A stretch of 64,000 nt of DNA from Mediterranea sp. (GCA_031262385.1 JAISHU010000024.1:318-64317), one strand, 5' to 3'; positions 9,255 through 52,123 are shown, counted from the stretch's first letter. Numbers and translations are program-made. Notes: generated by a model not told the origin, from the letters alone.

Positions 9255-9812
9255 GACGCATTGCTTATCAAAGTGTCAAAACGTCAAACGAACCCTCAAA
9301 AAACGGGCTTATTTCGGACTAAAGTACGGCTCGGTGACTTTTATTGCCGTATAGCGCGTTAAACTATGTAAAATATGCTACTTAATTGGCATGCTCACAG
9401 AAAGATATGAGGAAATTATGTCAAAAAACAAAAAGCGTGTTCAGCGCGAAAAAACAGCCTCAAAAAGGACTTTATGAAATTATCCCGGCAAGTTAGCGCG
9501 ATAACTTGCCGGGATAACACAATAATTTGCCGGAATATACAGGCTAACTTGCCGAGATAATTTTCTAAGCCGGCAGTTGATTCGTTGTTTTTGCGTCGAC
9601 AGTTTGTTGTTTCCGTGCAGATGATTCGTTGTTTCTACGGAGTTGATTCGTTGTTTTCGCGGAGTTGGTTCGTTAAGTAGCGGGAGATAATGCATCGCGT
9701 GCGGTTTAAAGGCACGTTTTCTTCAAAGTGTGAGTTAGCTAAAAACAGGATATTGCGACATTATGATGCTTAAATAGGGGATAATGTGCTAATGTGTCAA
9801 TCTGCTAATGAG
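9255..9812 (+). repeat. ~560-bp dispersed intergenic element, copy 1
   Basis: Aligns by eye over its length with copies at 18595, 38869 and 51567. Starts near CAAAGTGTCAAAACGTCAAA and ends in AATGTGCT-like octamers and CTAATGAG. Confidence 0.95.
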
Positions 9813-9821
9813 GATTTTTTA

Positions 9822-11024
9822 TCAAAAACCTAAGCTTTCGAGTCCTGCCGCAGCATACCATGCACACTGTGGGTAGGCTTTGTCGTTAGTGGTTTGGTAA
9901 CCTGTAGGAATATAACACGATATGCCGTTGGCTCCTTCCATAGAGAAGATACCTCCGTAAGCGGAATAGTTTTTCGGAGTAGTTTCCCAATACGGAGAAG
10001 CCGCCGCATAAGCTATTTCCCATTGTGCGTAGGCGGCATCGTCGGTTAGTATGCTGCGCATCATGCCTGCCAAGTCGTAATAGCCTATGTGCCACGTACC
10101 GGTGCGCTTGTCGTAATCGAATGTTTGGTGAAGCAAAGGGATGTTAGCCGTATGTCCTGCCAAAAGTTGTCGGGTGGTGGCGGCAAGATCATTCAATTTC
10201 TCCGTATCAATCACCACTATCGAAGTACCTGTCACCCAGTTGGTGTTGGAGGGATGACCGCCGGTATATATGGCGGCATAGGGTTCGTAATATCCGGCGG
10301 CTACTGTGGTAGCTACGTTGGTGTTGGCGGTAAACAAAGCAGGAACTAACTTGTCGTACATCGCACCCGGTCCGGGTATCTCGGTAGGCGAAGCTATGAT
10401 GTAATCGGTGTAGGAGCGCAACTCGTACGCTACCTCTATCGAAGCCATGAAGCAGGCATCAAACAGCAAGAAGTCGAGGTGGGGCGCACTTTGCAGAATC
10501 TTGGTAAAGTCGGAGATGTTCATCTTGTTATTACTGTTACCTCCGGTATCTTGTCCTACCCAGCGGGTATTTTGGTCGGGGGCTATTGCCCAGCCTTCGC
10601 CGTGCGACCAGTAAACCAGTCCGTAACTGTCGGCTTGATATTGAGGAGCGTTGAAAGCATCGGATAAAACTTCTTTGGTTTCGTTTACTCCCACAGAGTT
10701 GCGGTTGGTTTCGTAGGTTCGCACGACCGATTCTACTACCTGACCATTCTGTTGCTTTATCTCTATAAGGCGCGGAGCAGTGTTGGAGGAGTTAATATCC
10801 ATATAGACCAATAGGTGTATGTCGCTGTTGGTCAGTTTACCGAATCCGCTTTTTATTTCGTTCAAATCGTCGGAAGCAAAATTGGAGAGGCTATTGTCCG
10901 CAGCCATATACACCAACACGGTACGGCTTGCGCGGGGTGTGGGTGTGGGTTCGTCGTTGTTGCGGCATGCCACCAATAGAAAAGACAAACATAGCCATGC
11001 GGCTATGAGGTATTTACATTTCAT
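9822..11024 (-). CDS. Clostripain-family (C11) cysteine peptidase, lipoprotein
   Basis: Lipobox LVAC, RTVLVYMAADNSL, catalytic WSHG and FDACFM. Confidence 0.9.
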   Translation of the reverse strand: MKCKYLIAAWLCLSFLLVACRNNDEPTPTPRASRTVLVYMAADNSLSNFASDDLNEIKSGFGKLTNSDIHLLVYMDINSSNTAPRLIEIKQQNGQVVESVVRTYETNRNSVGVNETKEVLSDAFNAPQYQADSYGLVYWSHGEGWAIAPDQNTRWVGQDTGGNSNNKMNISDFTKILQSAPHLDFLLFDACFMASIEVAYELRSYTDYIIASPTEIPGPGAMYDKLVPALFTANTNVATTVAAGYYEPYAAIYTGGHPSNTNWVTGTSIVVIDTEKLNDLAATTRQLLAGHTANIPLLHQTFDYDKRTGTWHIGYYDLAGMMRSILTDDAAYAQWEIAYAAASPYWETTPKNYSAYGGIFSMEGANGISCYIPTGYQTTNDKAYPQCAWYAAAGLESLGF

Positions 11025-11143
11025 CTTTTAAGTCCTTCTTTTAGTTAACGAAAAGGGGTATTACAAAAAAGAGGGCAGGGAGATGACCTTATCTATCTCC
11101 GTACCCTCTCTGTTTATTATGATCTTCGTTGTGTATGCAATTT

Positions 11144-11551
11144 CTATTCTTCCGGTTTCTTGAACGAAAACTCATCGGAATTTAAGGAAACAATGACTGT
11201 CGAAGCATCTTTTTTGAATCTGTTTTTAATCTTATTGGCTTCCTTTATCAACTTGCCTTTGTTTTCCGAGAAGTATATCATGCATGTATAGTTGGGTTTA
11301 TTCAACTCATATTCCACATACGTTTGCATTTGGTTGCTGTATAGCGGTCGGTTCGGCAAGAAACCATTTTGGAGTTTCACGCTGTCTAAAACCTGTGGTT
11401 CTGACATATAAACCACCGTGTCGTTGAAAGAAGCGGCGAGTCCGAAGGCATACACCACTTTTTCTTTCTCGCCTTTTTCTTTTGCCGGCGAAAAAGCCGA
11501 CGACAAGACGAGTACCAATGCGAGAGTCAAGAAGATTCGGAAGTATTTCAT
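11144..11551 (-). CDS. Hypothetical exported protein
   Basis: 135-aa ORF with a signal peptide, immediately downstream of rpoD on the same strand. Confidence 0.75.
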   Translation of the reverse strand: MKYFRIFLTLALVLVLSSAFSPAKEKGEKEKVVYAFGLAASFNDTVVYMSEPQVLDSVKLQNGFLPNRPLYSNQMQTYVEYELNKPNYTCMIYFSENKGKLIKEANKIKNRFKKDASTVIVSLNSDEFSFKKPEE

Positions 11552-11555
11552 TTTA

Positions 11556-12416
11556 TTATCCCAGATAAGATTTGAGCAGTTTGCTACGGTTGCTGGTTCT
11601 CAGTCGGCGGATGGCTTTCTCCTTAATCTGTCGTACGCGCTCGCGTGTCAAGCCAAACTTATCTCCAATCTCTTCGAGCGTCATCTCTTGTTGACCGATA
11701 CCGAAGAACATGCGGATGATGTCTTTTTCGCGTTCGGTAAGCGTAGAAAGTGCGCGGTCAATTTCTCTGGAGAGCGACTCGTTGACTAATGTGCGGTCGG
11801 CCATAGGAGAGTCGTCGTTTACCAATACATCGAGCAAGCTGTTGTCTTCACCTTCTACGAAAGGAGCATCTACCGAGATGTGGCGTCCGGAGACTTTCAG
11901 CGTATCTGATATTTTCTCGACCGGTATATCCAGTTCTTCCGACAATTCTTCGGGCGAGGGACGACGTTCGTTGGCTTGTTCGAATTTAGAGAAGGCTTTG
12001 CTGATTTTGTTTAGTGAACCTACTTGATTTAGTGGTAACCGTACAATACGCGATTGTTCGGCTAATGCCTGCAAAATGGATTAACGTATCCACCACACAG
12101 CGTAGCTGATAAATTTAAACCCGCGTGTTTCGTCAAACTTTTCTGCTGCTTTGATGAGTCCTAAGTTTCCTTCGTTTATCAAGTCGGGAAGACTTAATCC
12201 TTGGTTCTGATACTGCTTGGCAACGGACACAACAAAGCGAAGATTGGCACGCGTAAGACGTTCCAATGCTTGTCTGTCTCCTTTGCGAATGCGTTGAGCG
12301 AGTTCAACTTCTTCTTCGACTGTAATGAGGTCCTCGCGACCGATTTCCTGCAAATACTTGTCAAGAGAAGCACTCTCTCTGTTGGTAATACTTTTGGTGA
12401 TTTTTAATTGTCTCAT
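11556..12416 (-). pseudogene. rpoD: Primary sigma-70 factor (RpoD/SigA, Bacteroidota short type), interrupted as sequenced by an in-frame TAA at codon 112
   Basis: The two ORF-track fragments are in one frame: [14 protein letters not shown]...[18 protein letters not shown]...[12 protein letters not shown]. The stop is at 12081-12083. It may be a sequence error rather than a true pseudogene. Confidence 0.9.
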
Positions 12417-50781: not shown

Positions 50782-51189
50782 ATGGAAAAAGTGATTATCA
50801 GCGTATCGCGAACAGAAAAAGGTTATTCCGCTTCGTGTGAGTTACTGCCGGGATGGGTGGTAGCTGTAACAGGCGATTTTGATGAACTTGAAAAAGAAGT
50901 TCAGGACAGCGTAGATTTCTATGTAGATTGTGCAAAAGAAGATGGTGATGCTTATCCGTCTGTATTTGATGGATCTTATAGCTTTGGATATAAATTTGAT
51001 GTGCGTAGTTTATTACACTTCTATCAAGATGTATTCTCCTTCGCTGCTCTTCAACATCTTACCGGTATCAATCAAAAACAACTCAGCCATTATGCTGCCG
51101 GGCGTTCAAAGCCTCGCAAAGAGCAAGCACAGAAAATAGTAGATGGTCTGCATCGGTTAGCTGGAGAATTAAATAGAGTTTCTGTTTAA
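50782..51189 (+). CDS. hicB: HicB family antitoxin with C-terminal HTH
   Basis: YSASCELLPG RNase-H-like N-domain, TGINQKQLSHYAAGRSKPR HTH, downstream of hicA. Confidence 0.88.
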   Translation: MEKVIISVSRTEKGYSASCELLPGWVVAVTGDFDELEKEVQDSVDFYVDCAKEDGDAYPSVFDGSYSFGYKFDVRSLLHFYQDVFSFAALQHLTGINQKQLSHYAAGRSKPRKEQAQKIVDGLHRLAGELNRVSV

Positions 51190-51213
51190 TTGTGACAAAT
51201 TAATTGAAACGAA

Positions 51214-51250
51214 GAAAAGGAGTCTTCACGTGTTGGAGGCTCTTTTTTTC
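51214..51250 (+). terminator. Intrinsic terminator after hicB
   Basis: GAGTCTTCA/TGGAGGCTC stem followed by T7. Confidence 0.7.
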
Positions 51251-51321
51251 TGCAAAATATCAAAAATTACGCAGAGAAAAAACAAAAGCGACAACCGATG
51301 TTACTCTGTTGTCGCCTTGTG

Positions 51322-51394
51322 TCGGAATGAGGCGACTCGAACGCCCGACCCCTACGTCCCGAACGTAGTGCGCTACCAACTGCGCTACATTCCG
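51322..51394 (-). tRNA. tRNA-Pro (anticodon CGG)
   Basis: Reverse complement CGGAATGTAGCGCAGTTGGTAGCGCACTACGTTCGGGACGTAGGGGTCGGGCGTTCGAGTCGCCTCATTCCGA folds as a cloverleaf with anticodon loop TTCGGGA. CCA is not encoded. Confidence 0.97.
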
Positions 51395-51566
51395 ATGCTC
51401 TTCGGTGAGACGGTTAAACCCGTGCTCAACCCGTTTTTAGCGCTGCAAAGGTATAAACTCTCTGTCGGATACACAAATAATGGCGATAGTTTTTTGTGGC
51501 TTAGAGAGAGATGCAAGCTTCTTATACACTATTGTTAGCTCTGTGTCTTAGAATTTAGCTCTTGAC

Positions 51567-52123
51567 TTTGACAAAGTGTCAAAACGTCAAATAAACCCTC
51601 GAAAAACGGGCTTATTTCGGGCTGAGGGACGGCTTCGTGACTTTCGTGCGAGTGTAGCGCGTTAAACTATGTAAAAATAGTGCCTTAATACGCACACTTA
51701 CAGAAAGATATAAAGAAATTATGTCAAGAAACAAAAAGCGTGTTCAGCGCAAAAAAACAGCCCCGAAAAGGACTTTATGAAATTATCCCGGCAAGTTAGC
51801 GCGATAATTTGCCGAGATAACACAATAATTTGCCGGGATATACAGGCTAACTTGCCGGGATAATTTGCTAAGCCGGCAGTTGATTCGTTGTTTTCGCGTC
51901 GACAGTTCGTTGTTTTCGGGCGGATGATTCATTGTTTCCGCCGAGTTGATTCGTTGTTTTCGCGGAGTTGGTTCGTTGAGTAGCGGGAGATCATGCATAG
52001 CGTGCGGTTTAAAGGCACGTTTTTGGTAAAGTGTGAGTTAGTAGAAAGCACAATATTACGACATTGTGATGCGAAAACAGGTAATAATGTGTTAATATGT
52101 CAATATGCTAATGTGCTAATGAG
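51567..52123 (+). repeat. ~560-bp dispersed intergenic element, copy 4
   Basis: Aligns with copy 1 from TTGACAAAGTGTC to CTAATGAG. Ends 5 nt from the crp/fnr stop codon. Confidence 0.95.

Follow-up and report, generated by a model that had tools for sequence, protein, structure and literature searches.

The window, i.e. the whole 64-kb stretch of DNA that was analysed, carries four copies of a non-coding element that belongs to a previously undescribed superfamily and cannot be placed in any described family of transposons, RNAs or repeats. Judged from its sequence, the family is most likely mobile or formerly mobile and would act at the DNA level. The more specific reading that we prefer, namely a new family of non-autonomous mobile DNA that serves as a phased scaffold for protein binding and whose copies keep an immunity-like spacing, is in our estimate about an even bet. 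A DNA-level, protein-binding element of mobile origin is favoured because the distribution is patchy, with independent large expansions and truncated relics, because length obeys a helical-phase constraint and the arrays are family-specific, and because convincing RNA covariation is absent in the window's own genome (G000).

Repeat search and MAFFT alignment recovered the four copies at the coordinates and on the strands given in the initial annotation (Table 1), and all four are intergenic and non-coding. The pairwise identities of 87–91% (over 300–552 nt) bear out the ~85–90% claimed there. The proposed module order holds as well: an 8-bp head, a body of ~190–210 bp, a palindrome plus array A, the 22-bp array B, a hairpin plus T run, and a tail of 8-bp period. 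Copy 3 represents a variant with nine copies, in which a 64-bp segment (~39273–39336) is swapped at equal length and the 8-bp tail is missing.

Table 1. Element copies in the window and modules of copy 1, in positions of the window.
Feature	Position	Strand	Neighbours or composition	Basis or remark
Copy 1	9255..9812	+	dnaG start (7149-9173, -) / C11 peptidase gene stop (9822-11024, -)	repeat search, MAFFT; tail junction also in independent Logan contig
Copy 2	18595..19162	-	convergent: SF1 helicase gene (16578-18548, +) / GH3 glycosidase gene (19171-21603, -)	repeat search, MAFFT
Copy 3	38869..39380	+	DUF4890 (+) / GH127 (-)	repeat search, MAFFT
Copy 4	51567..52123	+	tRNA gene (51322-51394, -) / Crp/Fnr-type regulator gene stop (52129-52827, -)	repeat search, MAFFT
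Head	9267..9290	+	three tandem 8-bp units: ATCAAAGT GTCAAAAC GTCAAACG	
5' body	9291..9478	+	blocks conserved across subfamilies and genera	
19-codon sORF	9418-9477		inside the 5' body	not coding
Array A	9479..9576	+	four TTGCCGRGATA units, 21-22-bp spacing	
Array B	9577..9690	+	4.5 x (GATTCGTTGTTT + 10-12-nt variable spacer), exact 22-bp period	
3' block	9699..9767	+	short hairpin + T run, AAAGT..GAGTTAGC..AAAA box, GCGACATTATGAT	box conserved
Tail	9780..9812	+	8-bp-period units AATGTGCT / AATGTGTC / AATCTGCT	unit number varies

Throughout the superfamily, the 5' part comprises tandem 8-bp TGTCA units (head), a conserved body of 95–190 nt and a spacer of fixed length, while the 3' part consists of site arrays phased at 22 bp, whose units are specific to each family, a GTTAGC box and TGTCA units (tail). 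Individual copies have 2 to 4 head units, and the homologous head in the related genome G272 reads (TT)TGTCAA(A) x2-4. The conserved blocks of the 5' body are CCCTCGAAAAACG, GTACGG, TTGGTGA, CGCGTTAAACTATGT and GTTCAGCGCGAAAAAA. In array A, unit 1 is inverted and thereby forms a palindrome with unit 2; for the left arm there are two linked states, present in 42/72 and 30/72 copies. The G272 counterpart of array B is built from palindromic GAAACAATATTGTTTC units, likewise with a 22-bp period. Relatives of the 22-bp array (AATTCATTGTTTTCCGGTCGAC x4) also occur solo elsewhere in G000, and the 8-bp tail module is found solo at ~19 other genomic places and matches an intergenic stretch of Bacteroides finegoldii. 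In the 3' block of copy 1, GCGACATTATGAT is an inverted head unit. The initial description, in which a clear terminal inverted repeat was absent, is too strict: nothing long or perfect exists, but a short, imperfect subterminal repeat is present, which spans 11 nt in G000 (head ATCAAAGTGTC versus 3' GACATTATGAT) and is clearer in the G272 consensus (TTGTCAAAATG / CATTTTGACAA).

The spacing of the modules is fixed to the base or shifted by whole helical turns, 22 bp being equal to two turns. In G000, 38 of 44 copies have an anchor-to-anchor distance of 488 bp and the others deviate by about -22 or ±1 bp; in G272 this distance is 490 bp with variants of about ±11 and 22 bp, and the spacer sequence is not conserved. 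One plan runs throughout the 0.5-kb body, i.e. one or two arrays with 4–5 sites each and a 22-bp period, plus conserved boxes. The array cores are invariant and the array spacers variable. Altogether 144 of 520 alignment columns are invariant, and the long runs that they form are also kept in a divergent subfamily and in G272. No pair of copies is more than 93% identical and thus nothing points to recent copying. Linkage between common polymorphisms is gone beyond ~15 bp, and short sequence patches are exchanged among copies. The site-frequency spectrum is near neutral (theta_W ~ pi).

The window had led to the prediction of about a hundred copies per genome. Indeed, 82 copies with a length of 200 bp or more were detected by BLASTN in G000, a 2.6-Mb MAG, and a 20-mer search and a profile search yielded 86 and 96 copies, respectively, with both orientations present. 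This MAG is fragmented and 84% complete, and ~12 copies lie at contig ends. The element was found in none of 249 congeners, so that within its genus (250 species) G000 alone carries it. A survey of family and order beyond the genus (~300 other genomes) found no carriers among 148 genera of the order, and among 35 genera of the family none besides G272 and G332, both of genus g24. G272, a complete-level genome of three contigs, possesses ~110 copies; G332 contains one relic and is the sole further carrier among 30 other species of G272's genus. Copy density is alike in G000 and G272 (~1 per 28–34 kb), which represent different genera of gut-type Bacteroidaceae. G000 additionally holds the divergent subfamily, which keeps the plan with different array units. 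As judged by comparison of these sequences, the element is part of a wider superfamily that includes the divergent subfamily, the G272 family and the G332 relic, and the expansions to ~100 copies in two distant lineages arose independently. Relics are present in the form of truncated and rearranged copies. One G272 copy is interrupted by an IS, and a 750-kb zone of G272 is sparse in copies. The nearest relatives of G000 exhibit 77–79% nucleotide identity and flanks without synteny, and the species of G000 occurs in just one other sample. Plasmid and phage records revealed no similarity to the element.

All copies are intergenic, and 21 of 48 reside between convergent genes as compared to a background of 15%. 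Copies also avoid each other. The smallest gap between copies in G000 is 7,082 bp; gaps below 5 kb are absent, with 6 expected, and none of 3000 class-matched simulations produced so few short gaps. In G272, the smallest gap is 5,389 bp; there are no gaps below 5 kb versus 17 expected and 9 gaps below 10 kb versus 31 expected, and counts this low never arose in 5000 simulations. As a pattern, this absence of close neighbours is consistent with target immunity and, with no second copy within ~5 kb, resembles the cis-immunity of Mu, which is strongest within ~5 kb and decays across 5–25 kb (PMC7350765).

Hallmarks of transposition were sought in both genomes. The initial annotation had seen no target-site duplication, and none was found in G000, where the longest flank match was 5.80 versus 5.67 for shuffled pairs, or in the just 12 usable copies of G272, which showed no excess at k = 5, 8 and 9 (5-bp duplications in 2/12 versus a null of 6%, not significant). 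Its view that no transposase, RT or cas gene accompanies the element is also supported. Y1 (PF01797, RAYT) and rve (PF00665) are absent from G000 and G272, IS110 and DDE_Tnp_1 are absent from G000 (84% complete), and Mu-type PF02914 gave no match, its control being uninformative. A cognate autonomous element did not emerge in G000 either, which contains no repeat above 800 bp. The ends of the IS elements examined in G272 are unrelated to those of the element.

According to the model of a mobile scaffold, the arrays and end units would bind a putative recombinase or transposase that acts in trans, together with accessory proteins, all of which may assemble one large phased complex, as at the ends of Mu, Tn7 and Tn402, at attP sites and at iteron origins. 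The exclusion zone of 5–7 kb would represent target immunity conferred by the bound sites, and the mobilising protein would be either missing from these assemblies or of another family than those searched. Against mobility stand the absence of a target-site duplication, the merely short and imperfect inverted repeat, the lack of a cognate transposase and of recent copying, and the site arrays, which are internal, single and not mirrored as in Mu and Tn7. Moreover, the enforced spacing, like the copy density shared by G000 and G272, could be explained equally well by a host function, and a 5' hairpin in G272 with modest strand-specific support would be compatible with an RNA or with a single-stranded form.

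Several described classes were considered and rejected, in support of the earlier statement that the element is no IS, CRISPR or short REP. In a CRISPR array the 'spacers' would not be expected to be conserved between copies as they are in the 22-bp array, and no cas gene is nearby. Short REP/BIME/REPIN units are imperfect palindromes of 20–40 bp, and the unit here is a fixed core of 488 bp. Still, the element shares with the BIMEs and REP-REPINs of Enterobacteria and Pseudomonas an extragenic position mostly at gene 3' ends, tens to hundreds of copies, a mosaic of modules that also occur solo, and a proposed protein-binding role; binding of gyrase and IHF has been reported for the BIMEs of E. 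coli. It differs by its 0.5-kb body of fixed length, BIMEs being shorter than ~150 bp, and by the lack of the RAYT (Y1) gene, on which REPINs depend, in G000 and G272. We know of no BIMEs with an enforced 5-kb spacing. Pneumococcal BOX (boxA-(boxB)n-boxC), the Correia elements of Neisseria and BrickBuilt/MITEPgRS of P. gingivalis are likewise non-coding, intergenic, modular and present in ~100 copies, and their internal or terminal units vary in number; to our knowledge, BOX has no identified transposase. However, these elements measure 100–300 bp (MITEPgRS up to ~700), are largely homogeneous and mostly have clear TIRs and TSDs, whereas the element described here lacks TSDs and near-identical copies and exhibits 22-bp-phased arrays, constrained length and mutual exclusion of copies. 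MITEs of P. gingivalis feature in PMC5771137 and PMC2575886.

Several putative ~22-bp protein sites in phase and TG..CA-type end units (TGTCA / TGACA) are shared with Mu, Tn7, Tn402/Tn5053 and IS21. A Mu/Tn7/Tn402-type end architecture was nevertheless rejected: the arrays are internal, single and unmirrored, the 8-bp TGTCA units are the one module shared by the two ends, a 5-bp duplication is absent, the element is a gene-free 0.55 kb, and neither rve nor, with the above caveat on its control, a Mu-type transposase was found in G000 or G272. Iteron plasmid origins and centromere-like sites also comprise 4–5 direct repeats (17–22 bp, phased; 22-bp period here) with a second array nearby, and the palindromic AAACA-N4-TGTTT units of G272 recall parS half-sites. 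This candidate was dismissed as well, since ~100 chromosomal copies lie by unrelated genes, with no adjacent rep or par gene and no plasmid or phage similarity, instead of one or few per replicon.

An alternative to which we assign a low probability is a host-maintained element of chromosome architecture, possibly an exapted repeat, to which proteins of the nucleoid, topoisomerase or condensin type would bind, much as has been reported for gyrase and IHF at the BIMEs of E. coli. Kept at mostly convergent intergenic junctions with a minimum spacing, the copies would therefore serve as markers or insulators of supercoil or transcription domains. Equal density in two unrelated genomes, strict exclusion of neighbours within 5–7 kb, enrichment at convergent gene ends, a length held to the base or whole helical turns, the invariant runs shared with the divergent subfamily and G272, and the lack of recent copies and of a transposase all agree with such a role. 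However, relatives should share an element that has a host function, yet it is missing from the 249 congeners and from almost the entire family. Truncated relics and the sparse zone of G272 resemble neutral gain and loss, and the frequency spectrum is near neutral. Rather improbable in our view is a multicopy non-coding RNA gene, or an element moving or acting as a single strand, whose transcribed or exposed + strand would fold into hairpins, with the 22-nt repeats serving either to sponge up protein or as hairpins for recognition. The 5' body hairpin of G272 (17+2+6 bp) argues for it, being paired in 88% of cells versus 31–45% when slid, with G-U wobbles in ~60 cells of the + strand and 15 two-sided changes versus 8.6 ± 2.2 (5/500 shuffles); many common G000 transitions are wobble-compatible on the + strand, and small hairpins (CGAAAAA..TTTTTCG and GCGC-N5-GCGC) are kept across subfamilies. 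But the long hairpin is not conserved in G000, where polymorphic paired columns vary independently without compensation and no covariation on both sides of helices was detectable on either strand. Furthermore, in the alignment across subfamilies the two strands are about equal in how well they fold, the consensus lacks a Bacteroidetes-type promoter (TTTG ... TAnnTTTG), no Y1/HUH gene exists in G000 or G272, and ~100 gene copies for one RNA would be unprecedented. The check for a described RNA family, proposed at the outset, gave nothing but a tRNA for the whole window at the Rfam gathering threshold and nothing but noise for copy 4 at E up to 5; ROOL, GOLLD, group II intron, HEARO and other Rfam families were thus rejected for lack of a covariance-model match. 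Coding was not indicated either: the sORF carries a stop in ~14/72 copies, and codon-position bias is absent from it and from the antisense frame.

We likewise see little chance for an ordinary MITE of a known IS family, the autonomous partner of which is unbinned or lost. It agrees with the small size of the element, its lack of coding content, its many intergenic copies and its short inverted ends of TGTCA type; mobile elements often stay unbinned, G000 being an 84% complete MAG, and other, clearly TIR-bearing MITE families exist in G000. This explanation is opposed by the missing target-site duplication, plasmid or phage match and near-identical recent copies, by the complete G272, in which ~110 copies share no ends with the IS families examined, and by the internal architecture, which is kept over the whole 0.5 kb although MITEs conserve ends only. 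Finally, chimeric or duplicated repeat copies made by the metagenome assembler are scarcely credible. The MAG is fragmented with ~12 copies at contig ends, and the mosaic pattern could in principle stem from graph mis-threading. However, the copies are 7–15% diverged and sit within unique flanks, linkage decays within 15 bp, far under any assembler k-mer, a like family with like properties is present in the three contigs of G272, and the independent Logan assembly SRR14710920 reproduces the tail junction of copy 1 base for base.

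Repeat search and MAFFT alignment recovered all four copies of the ~0.55-kb non-coding element that the initial annotation had placed in the window. The copies are 87–91% identical, they share the module order described there, and all four lie between genes, as had been claimed. The adjacent genes (dnaG, a C11 peptidase, an SF1 helicase, GH3, DUF4890, GH127, a tRNA and a Crp/Fnr regulator) have no functional theme in common. The window belongs to contig C164 of a metagenome-assembled genome (G000; 2.6 Mb, 171 contigs, 84% complete), for which a high copy number of the element had been anticipated. 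Indeed, BLASTN with copy 4 detected 82 copies with a length of 200 bp or more, the majority measuring 500–557 bp; searches with a conserved 20-mer and with a 5'-body profile gave 86 and 96 matches, respectively. The density is ~1 copy per 28–32 kb, amounting to nearly 2% of the DNA. It is extremely improbable that the element is an assembly artefact: an independent Logan assembly of run SRR14710920 matches, base for base, the junction at which the tail of copy 1 meets the C11 peptidase gene, and linkage between copies decays over distances far shorter than any assembler k-mer. The Logan contig ends within a conserved block of the element, as a genuine repeat should. Searching for other strains by exact protein sequence returned one Logan contig from the same sample type; two look-ups of this kind were without match, possibly due to start-codon choice.

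Coordinates of the element copies in the window and of related or neighbouring repeat families elsewhere in G000
Feature	Position	Strand	Basis
Element copy 1	window 9255-9812	+	repeat search and MAFFT alignment
Element copy 2	window 18595-19162	-	repeat search and MAFFT alignment
Element copy 3	window 38869-39380	+	repeat search and MAFFT alignment
Element copy 4	window 51567-52123	+	repeat search and MAFFT alignment
Stand-alone arrays of four 22-bp units (AATTCATTGTTTTCCGGTCGAC)	C7:~1990-2091; C17:~18599-18678; C27:~25041-25121; C78:~5250-5331		
Classical MITE family, ~187 bp (examples)	C47:183-369; C17:29496-29690; C23:8457-8534		

The distance between the left and right anchors in G000 is exactly 488 bp in 38 of 44 copies, the exceptions measuring 466–467 bp (one array unit fewer), 487 or 489 bp. 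In G272, a genome of another genus of the same family, GTCAAAYGAA and GTTAGC are separated by 490 bp in most copies; variants cluster near 479–482, 501–502 and 513 bp, which are whole helical turns, and the intervening sequence is not conserved. As indels are missing despite 15% substitution divergence, selection on spacing is required. Among 72 copies, 144 of 520 columns are invariant (mean of 8 variants per column, variance 107), and the invariant runs coincide with the blocks retained by a divergent subfamily and by G272. No two copies are more than 93% identical (median 85%). A minor allele of at least 15% is present at 116 sites, r2 drops from 0.11 at 4–8 bp to 0.017 by 30–60 bp (independence level 0.014), and rare variants contribute only ~1.4% divergence. 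Low pairwise identity, decaying linkage and few rare variants identify the copies as mosaics. This agrees with the mosaic nature noted in the initial annotation, linkage among common variants being lost by 30–60 bp. A smooth decay of this kind would be the expected outcome if copies exchanged short patches by conversion.

Parts of the element also occur on their own in G000. The 8-bp tail (AATGTGCY AATATGCT ...) occurs detached from a core at ~19 places, and ~10 copies carry it inverted on their left side. A left extension (..AACTCCTCAACTGCGGCGACGCATTCC) reaches nested extents among the copies, and the stand-alone arrays of 22-bp units, which are related to the 22-bp-period array B of the element, are intergenic and located directly behind terminator-like hairpins. 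With its modular tail, arrays and left extension, the element is therefore a mosaic in the BIME/BOX sense, built around a fixed 488-bp core. Two further repeat families often adjoin it, i.e. the ~187-bp MITE family, which has ~20-bp TIRs (AGAAACTGTTTTGAATTTAG...) and ~40 copies counting shorter derivatives, and a family of ~359 bp with 13 copies and internal CCGTCCGACCAACGTCGTACG palindromes. The genome-wide repeat survey also detected a CRISPR-like array outside the window (C129:2744-3241), composed of a 36-bp repeat (CTTGTGGACTATCCCAATAATGAAGGGAACTACAAC) and ~30-bp spacers.

At least six divergent copies in G000 are ~70% identical and keep the same plan. They consist of a head of 8-bp units, the blocks CCCTCGAAAAACG, GTACGG, CGCGTTAAACTATGT.AAAA and GTTCAGCGCGAAAAAA, arrays of ~22-bp units differing from those of the main family (AACTCACCGAGTTAGCG), and a 3' AAGCGCAAAAT.GTGACATTTTG. 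A profile of the element body (alignment A3, profile R1) produced one weak but real match in G272, which comprises 3.7 Mb in 3 contigs and appears to be a finished genome. BLAST together with a combined profile (A4, R2) detected ~110 copies therein, measuring 560–600 bp and exhibiting the same architecture: a head of 2–4 tandem TGTCAA(A) units, a conserved 95-nt body, a spacer of free sequence, an array of 4–5 palindromes (GAAACAATATTGTTTC or AAACACAAGTGTTT) with a 22-bp period, and a 3' part with, in this order, a hairpin, TTTTTCAAAAGTACGCGTTAGCTGAAAA, TCTGTCAAG and a terminal CATTTTGACA, which is the head unit inverted. The bodies from G000 and G272 align collinearly, and the element is a member of a wider superfamily.

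One relic copy resides in a congener of G272 (G332). The element was not found in 29 further species of the G272 genus. Screening 33 other genera of its family and 148 genera of its order also returned no copies, and none were seen among plasmids, phages, viral contigs or JGI metagenomes. The element was likewise not detected in the other 249 species of the G000 genus, where four single matches represent chance. Weak R1 matches in six other genomes were spurious on inspection, and the 12 matches of an iteron-pattern scan were all attributable to chance. An exact 23-mer had no occurrence in 185k species genomes and JGI metagenomes; an exact 20-mer had one chance match in metagenomes and none in viral contigs. 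When BLAST was run against plasmids and phages, a G272 copy had no match and the G000 element matched only through its 8-bp tail, in an intergenic stretch of Bacteroides finegoldii. The B. finegoldii record concerned, 'plasmid 45' (NZ_OY725947.1 31357-36395; 144 kb), carries recG, ispD, tolA, exbD and pdxJ and appears to be part of a chromosome, not a plasmid; its 70-bp intergenic region has the AATGTGCCAATATGCTAATGTGCC repeat directly upstream of a DJ-1 gene.

All copies are intergenic, their flanking genes are not syntenic in relatives, and convergent gene pairs flank 21 of 48 classifiable copies vs 15% of background intergenic regions. The 23 within-contig gaps in G000 have a minimum of 7,082 bp, whereas random class-matched intergenic placement predicts 6.4 gaps below 5 kb and 8.3 below 7 kb; zero short gaps were reached in none of 3000 simulations. 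Spacing in G000 could be biased by assembly breakage, but this does not apply to the finished G272. There, the smallest of 111 gaps measures 5,389 bp, and observed vs expected numbers are 0 vs 17 below 5 kb, 2 vs 26 below 8 kb and 9 vs 31 below 10 kb, with none of 5000 simulations as low as observed. A stretch of G272 (C1, 2.0–2.75 Mb) contains only 5 copies in 750 kb vs ~9 per 250 kb elsewhere; it may correspond to the terminus region or have been acquired recently. Between the left end of the element and the dnaG start (window 9174-9254), a Bacteroidetes-type -7 box, TAACTTTG, is present on the minus strand ~10 nt before the ATG, which places dnaG's own promoter outside the element.

A 19-codon sORF (MSKNKKR...) was rejected, as it is broken by an in-frame stop in ~14 of 72 copies and its substitutions number 145/83/103 at the three codon positions; a 114-codon antisense open frame lacks a third-position excess and is interrupted by stops in 38 of 65 copies. 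In keeping with the initial description of the element as belonging to no recognisable family, no Rfam family matches it: the whole window contains only a tRNA at the gathering threshold, and a single copy gives noise at the E-value threshold. Scans for Bacteroidetes promoter motifs, sigma-70 and terminators yielded nothing beyond chance. We regard a role as RNA or single-stranded DNA as quite improbable. Although many columns are paired by RNAalifold in G000, the helices change on one side only, or vary independently where both partners vary, and in a cross-subfamily alignment both strands fold with equal energy and only two small hairpins persist. The G272 body forms a long hairpin (88% paired vs 31–45% in slid controls) with many G-U-compatible changes on the + strand and modest covariation, 15 cells being changed on both sides vs 8.6 ± 2.2 (5 of 500 shuffles). 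Since this hairpin is not conserved in G000, we take it as pointing to a possible strand-specific step rather than as support for an RNA gene.

That the element is an ordinary MITE whose partner is missing appears similarly improbable. Searches of G000 identified no repeats longer than 800 bp, no Y1 (IS200/RAYT), IS110, rve or DDE_Tnp_1 transposases and no RT genes, and direct repeats shared by the flanks of the copies do not exceed chance. Neither G000 nor G272 yielded an rve or Mu-type enzyme, the control of the Mu-type search being uninformative. At least four multicopy IS families are present in G272, and one IS is inserted into an element copy at ~965.3 kb, a locus partly masked with N. 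IS ends in G272 (TTCCTGACTTTGACA; TCCTGACTTCGTCAACGTGTCACCC) were rejected as a source: they share TGAC motifs but do not match those of the element. At thirteen loci on C1 of G272 (e.g. 1905321-1905941), a reverse-transcriptase ORF of 476 aa recurs in nearly identical form and probably belongs to a group II intron; 2 of these 13 genes are less than 2 kb from a copy of the element, which is about chance level.

The best single reading, to which we give about an even chance, is a non-autonomous element of mobile origin with immunity-like behaviour, because its exclusion zone has a Mu-like range and immunity in Mu and Tn7 is conferred by transposase-bound end sites. Mu cis-immunity is strongest within ~5 kb and decays over 5–25 kb (PMC7350765), a range that the exclusion zone of the element shares. 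Mobile origin is further favored by a distribution that is patchy and includes two independent expansions to ~100 copies, by the relics and the IS inserted into one copy, by the preference for 'safe' convergent junctions, and by subfamilies that combine different site arrays with the same plan. The entire body may serve as a scaffold for a multi-protein complex, as indicated by its fixed helical phase, by array cores that do not vary and by the TGTCA units at either end. Weak points of a mobile, immunity-like element are the lack of target duplications, mirrored arrays and recent copies, and that neither genome yielded an rve or Mu-type enzyme. The main rival, which we consider rather unlikely, holds that the host keeps the copies as architectural sites; equal density in both genomes, enforced spacing and block conservation would fit, but the element is absent from relatives. 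Equally doubtful is a reading as a new class of self-spacing chromosomal nucleoprotein site rather than a decaying transposon. In this case, each copy would be a 0.5-kb platform of fixed helical phase that recruits a dedicated set of proteins, copies would keep a mutual distance of 5 kb or more, and short-patch conversion would homogenise them. The sites and a putative binding or mobilising protein would move horizontally between Bacteroidaceae lineages, either as a mobile 'chromosome-organising' system or as a target-immune transposon class operating without DDE, Y1 or RT enzymes.

Bacterial genomes contain few components as poorly understood as their interspersed non-coding repeats, and to our knowledge almost none have been described in Bacteroidaceae, the dominant gut family. 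No description of the element was found in the literature on Bacteroides MITEs, intergenic repeats and the palindrome sequence, or in Rfam, plasmid and phage collections. Interspersed non-coding mosaic repeats are a known kind, of which this member is new and stands apart by its size, its phase-locked architecture, the linkage equilibrium within a genome and the mutual exclusion of copies; there is a small chance that it represents something more fundamental. The family is unusually large and of elaborate construction. It combines a length that stays fixed to the helical turn despite sequence drift, a population-like linkage equilibrium among the copies of one genome and a hard exclusion zone of 5–7 kb around each copy, seen in two independent genomes, and we know of no bacterial repeats for which these properties have been reported together. 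Were the spacing due to target immunity, the elements would point to a transposition machinery not yet recognised; were it instead due to function, they would be candidate domain or insulator sites in a group whose chromosome organisation is unexplored. As G272 is apparently finished, these questions are experimentally tractable. At ~2% of the genome, the element breaks short-read assemblies and can mislead binning and annotation.

Apart from the element, the initial annotation had noted that the primary sigma factor gene contains an in-frame TAA (window 12081-12083). An intact 309-aa sigma-70 ORF is called at this locus in a Logan contig (L061), suggesting that the reading frame or the gene call deserves a second look.
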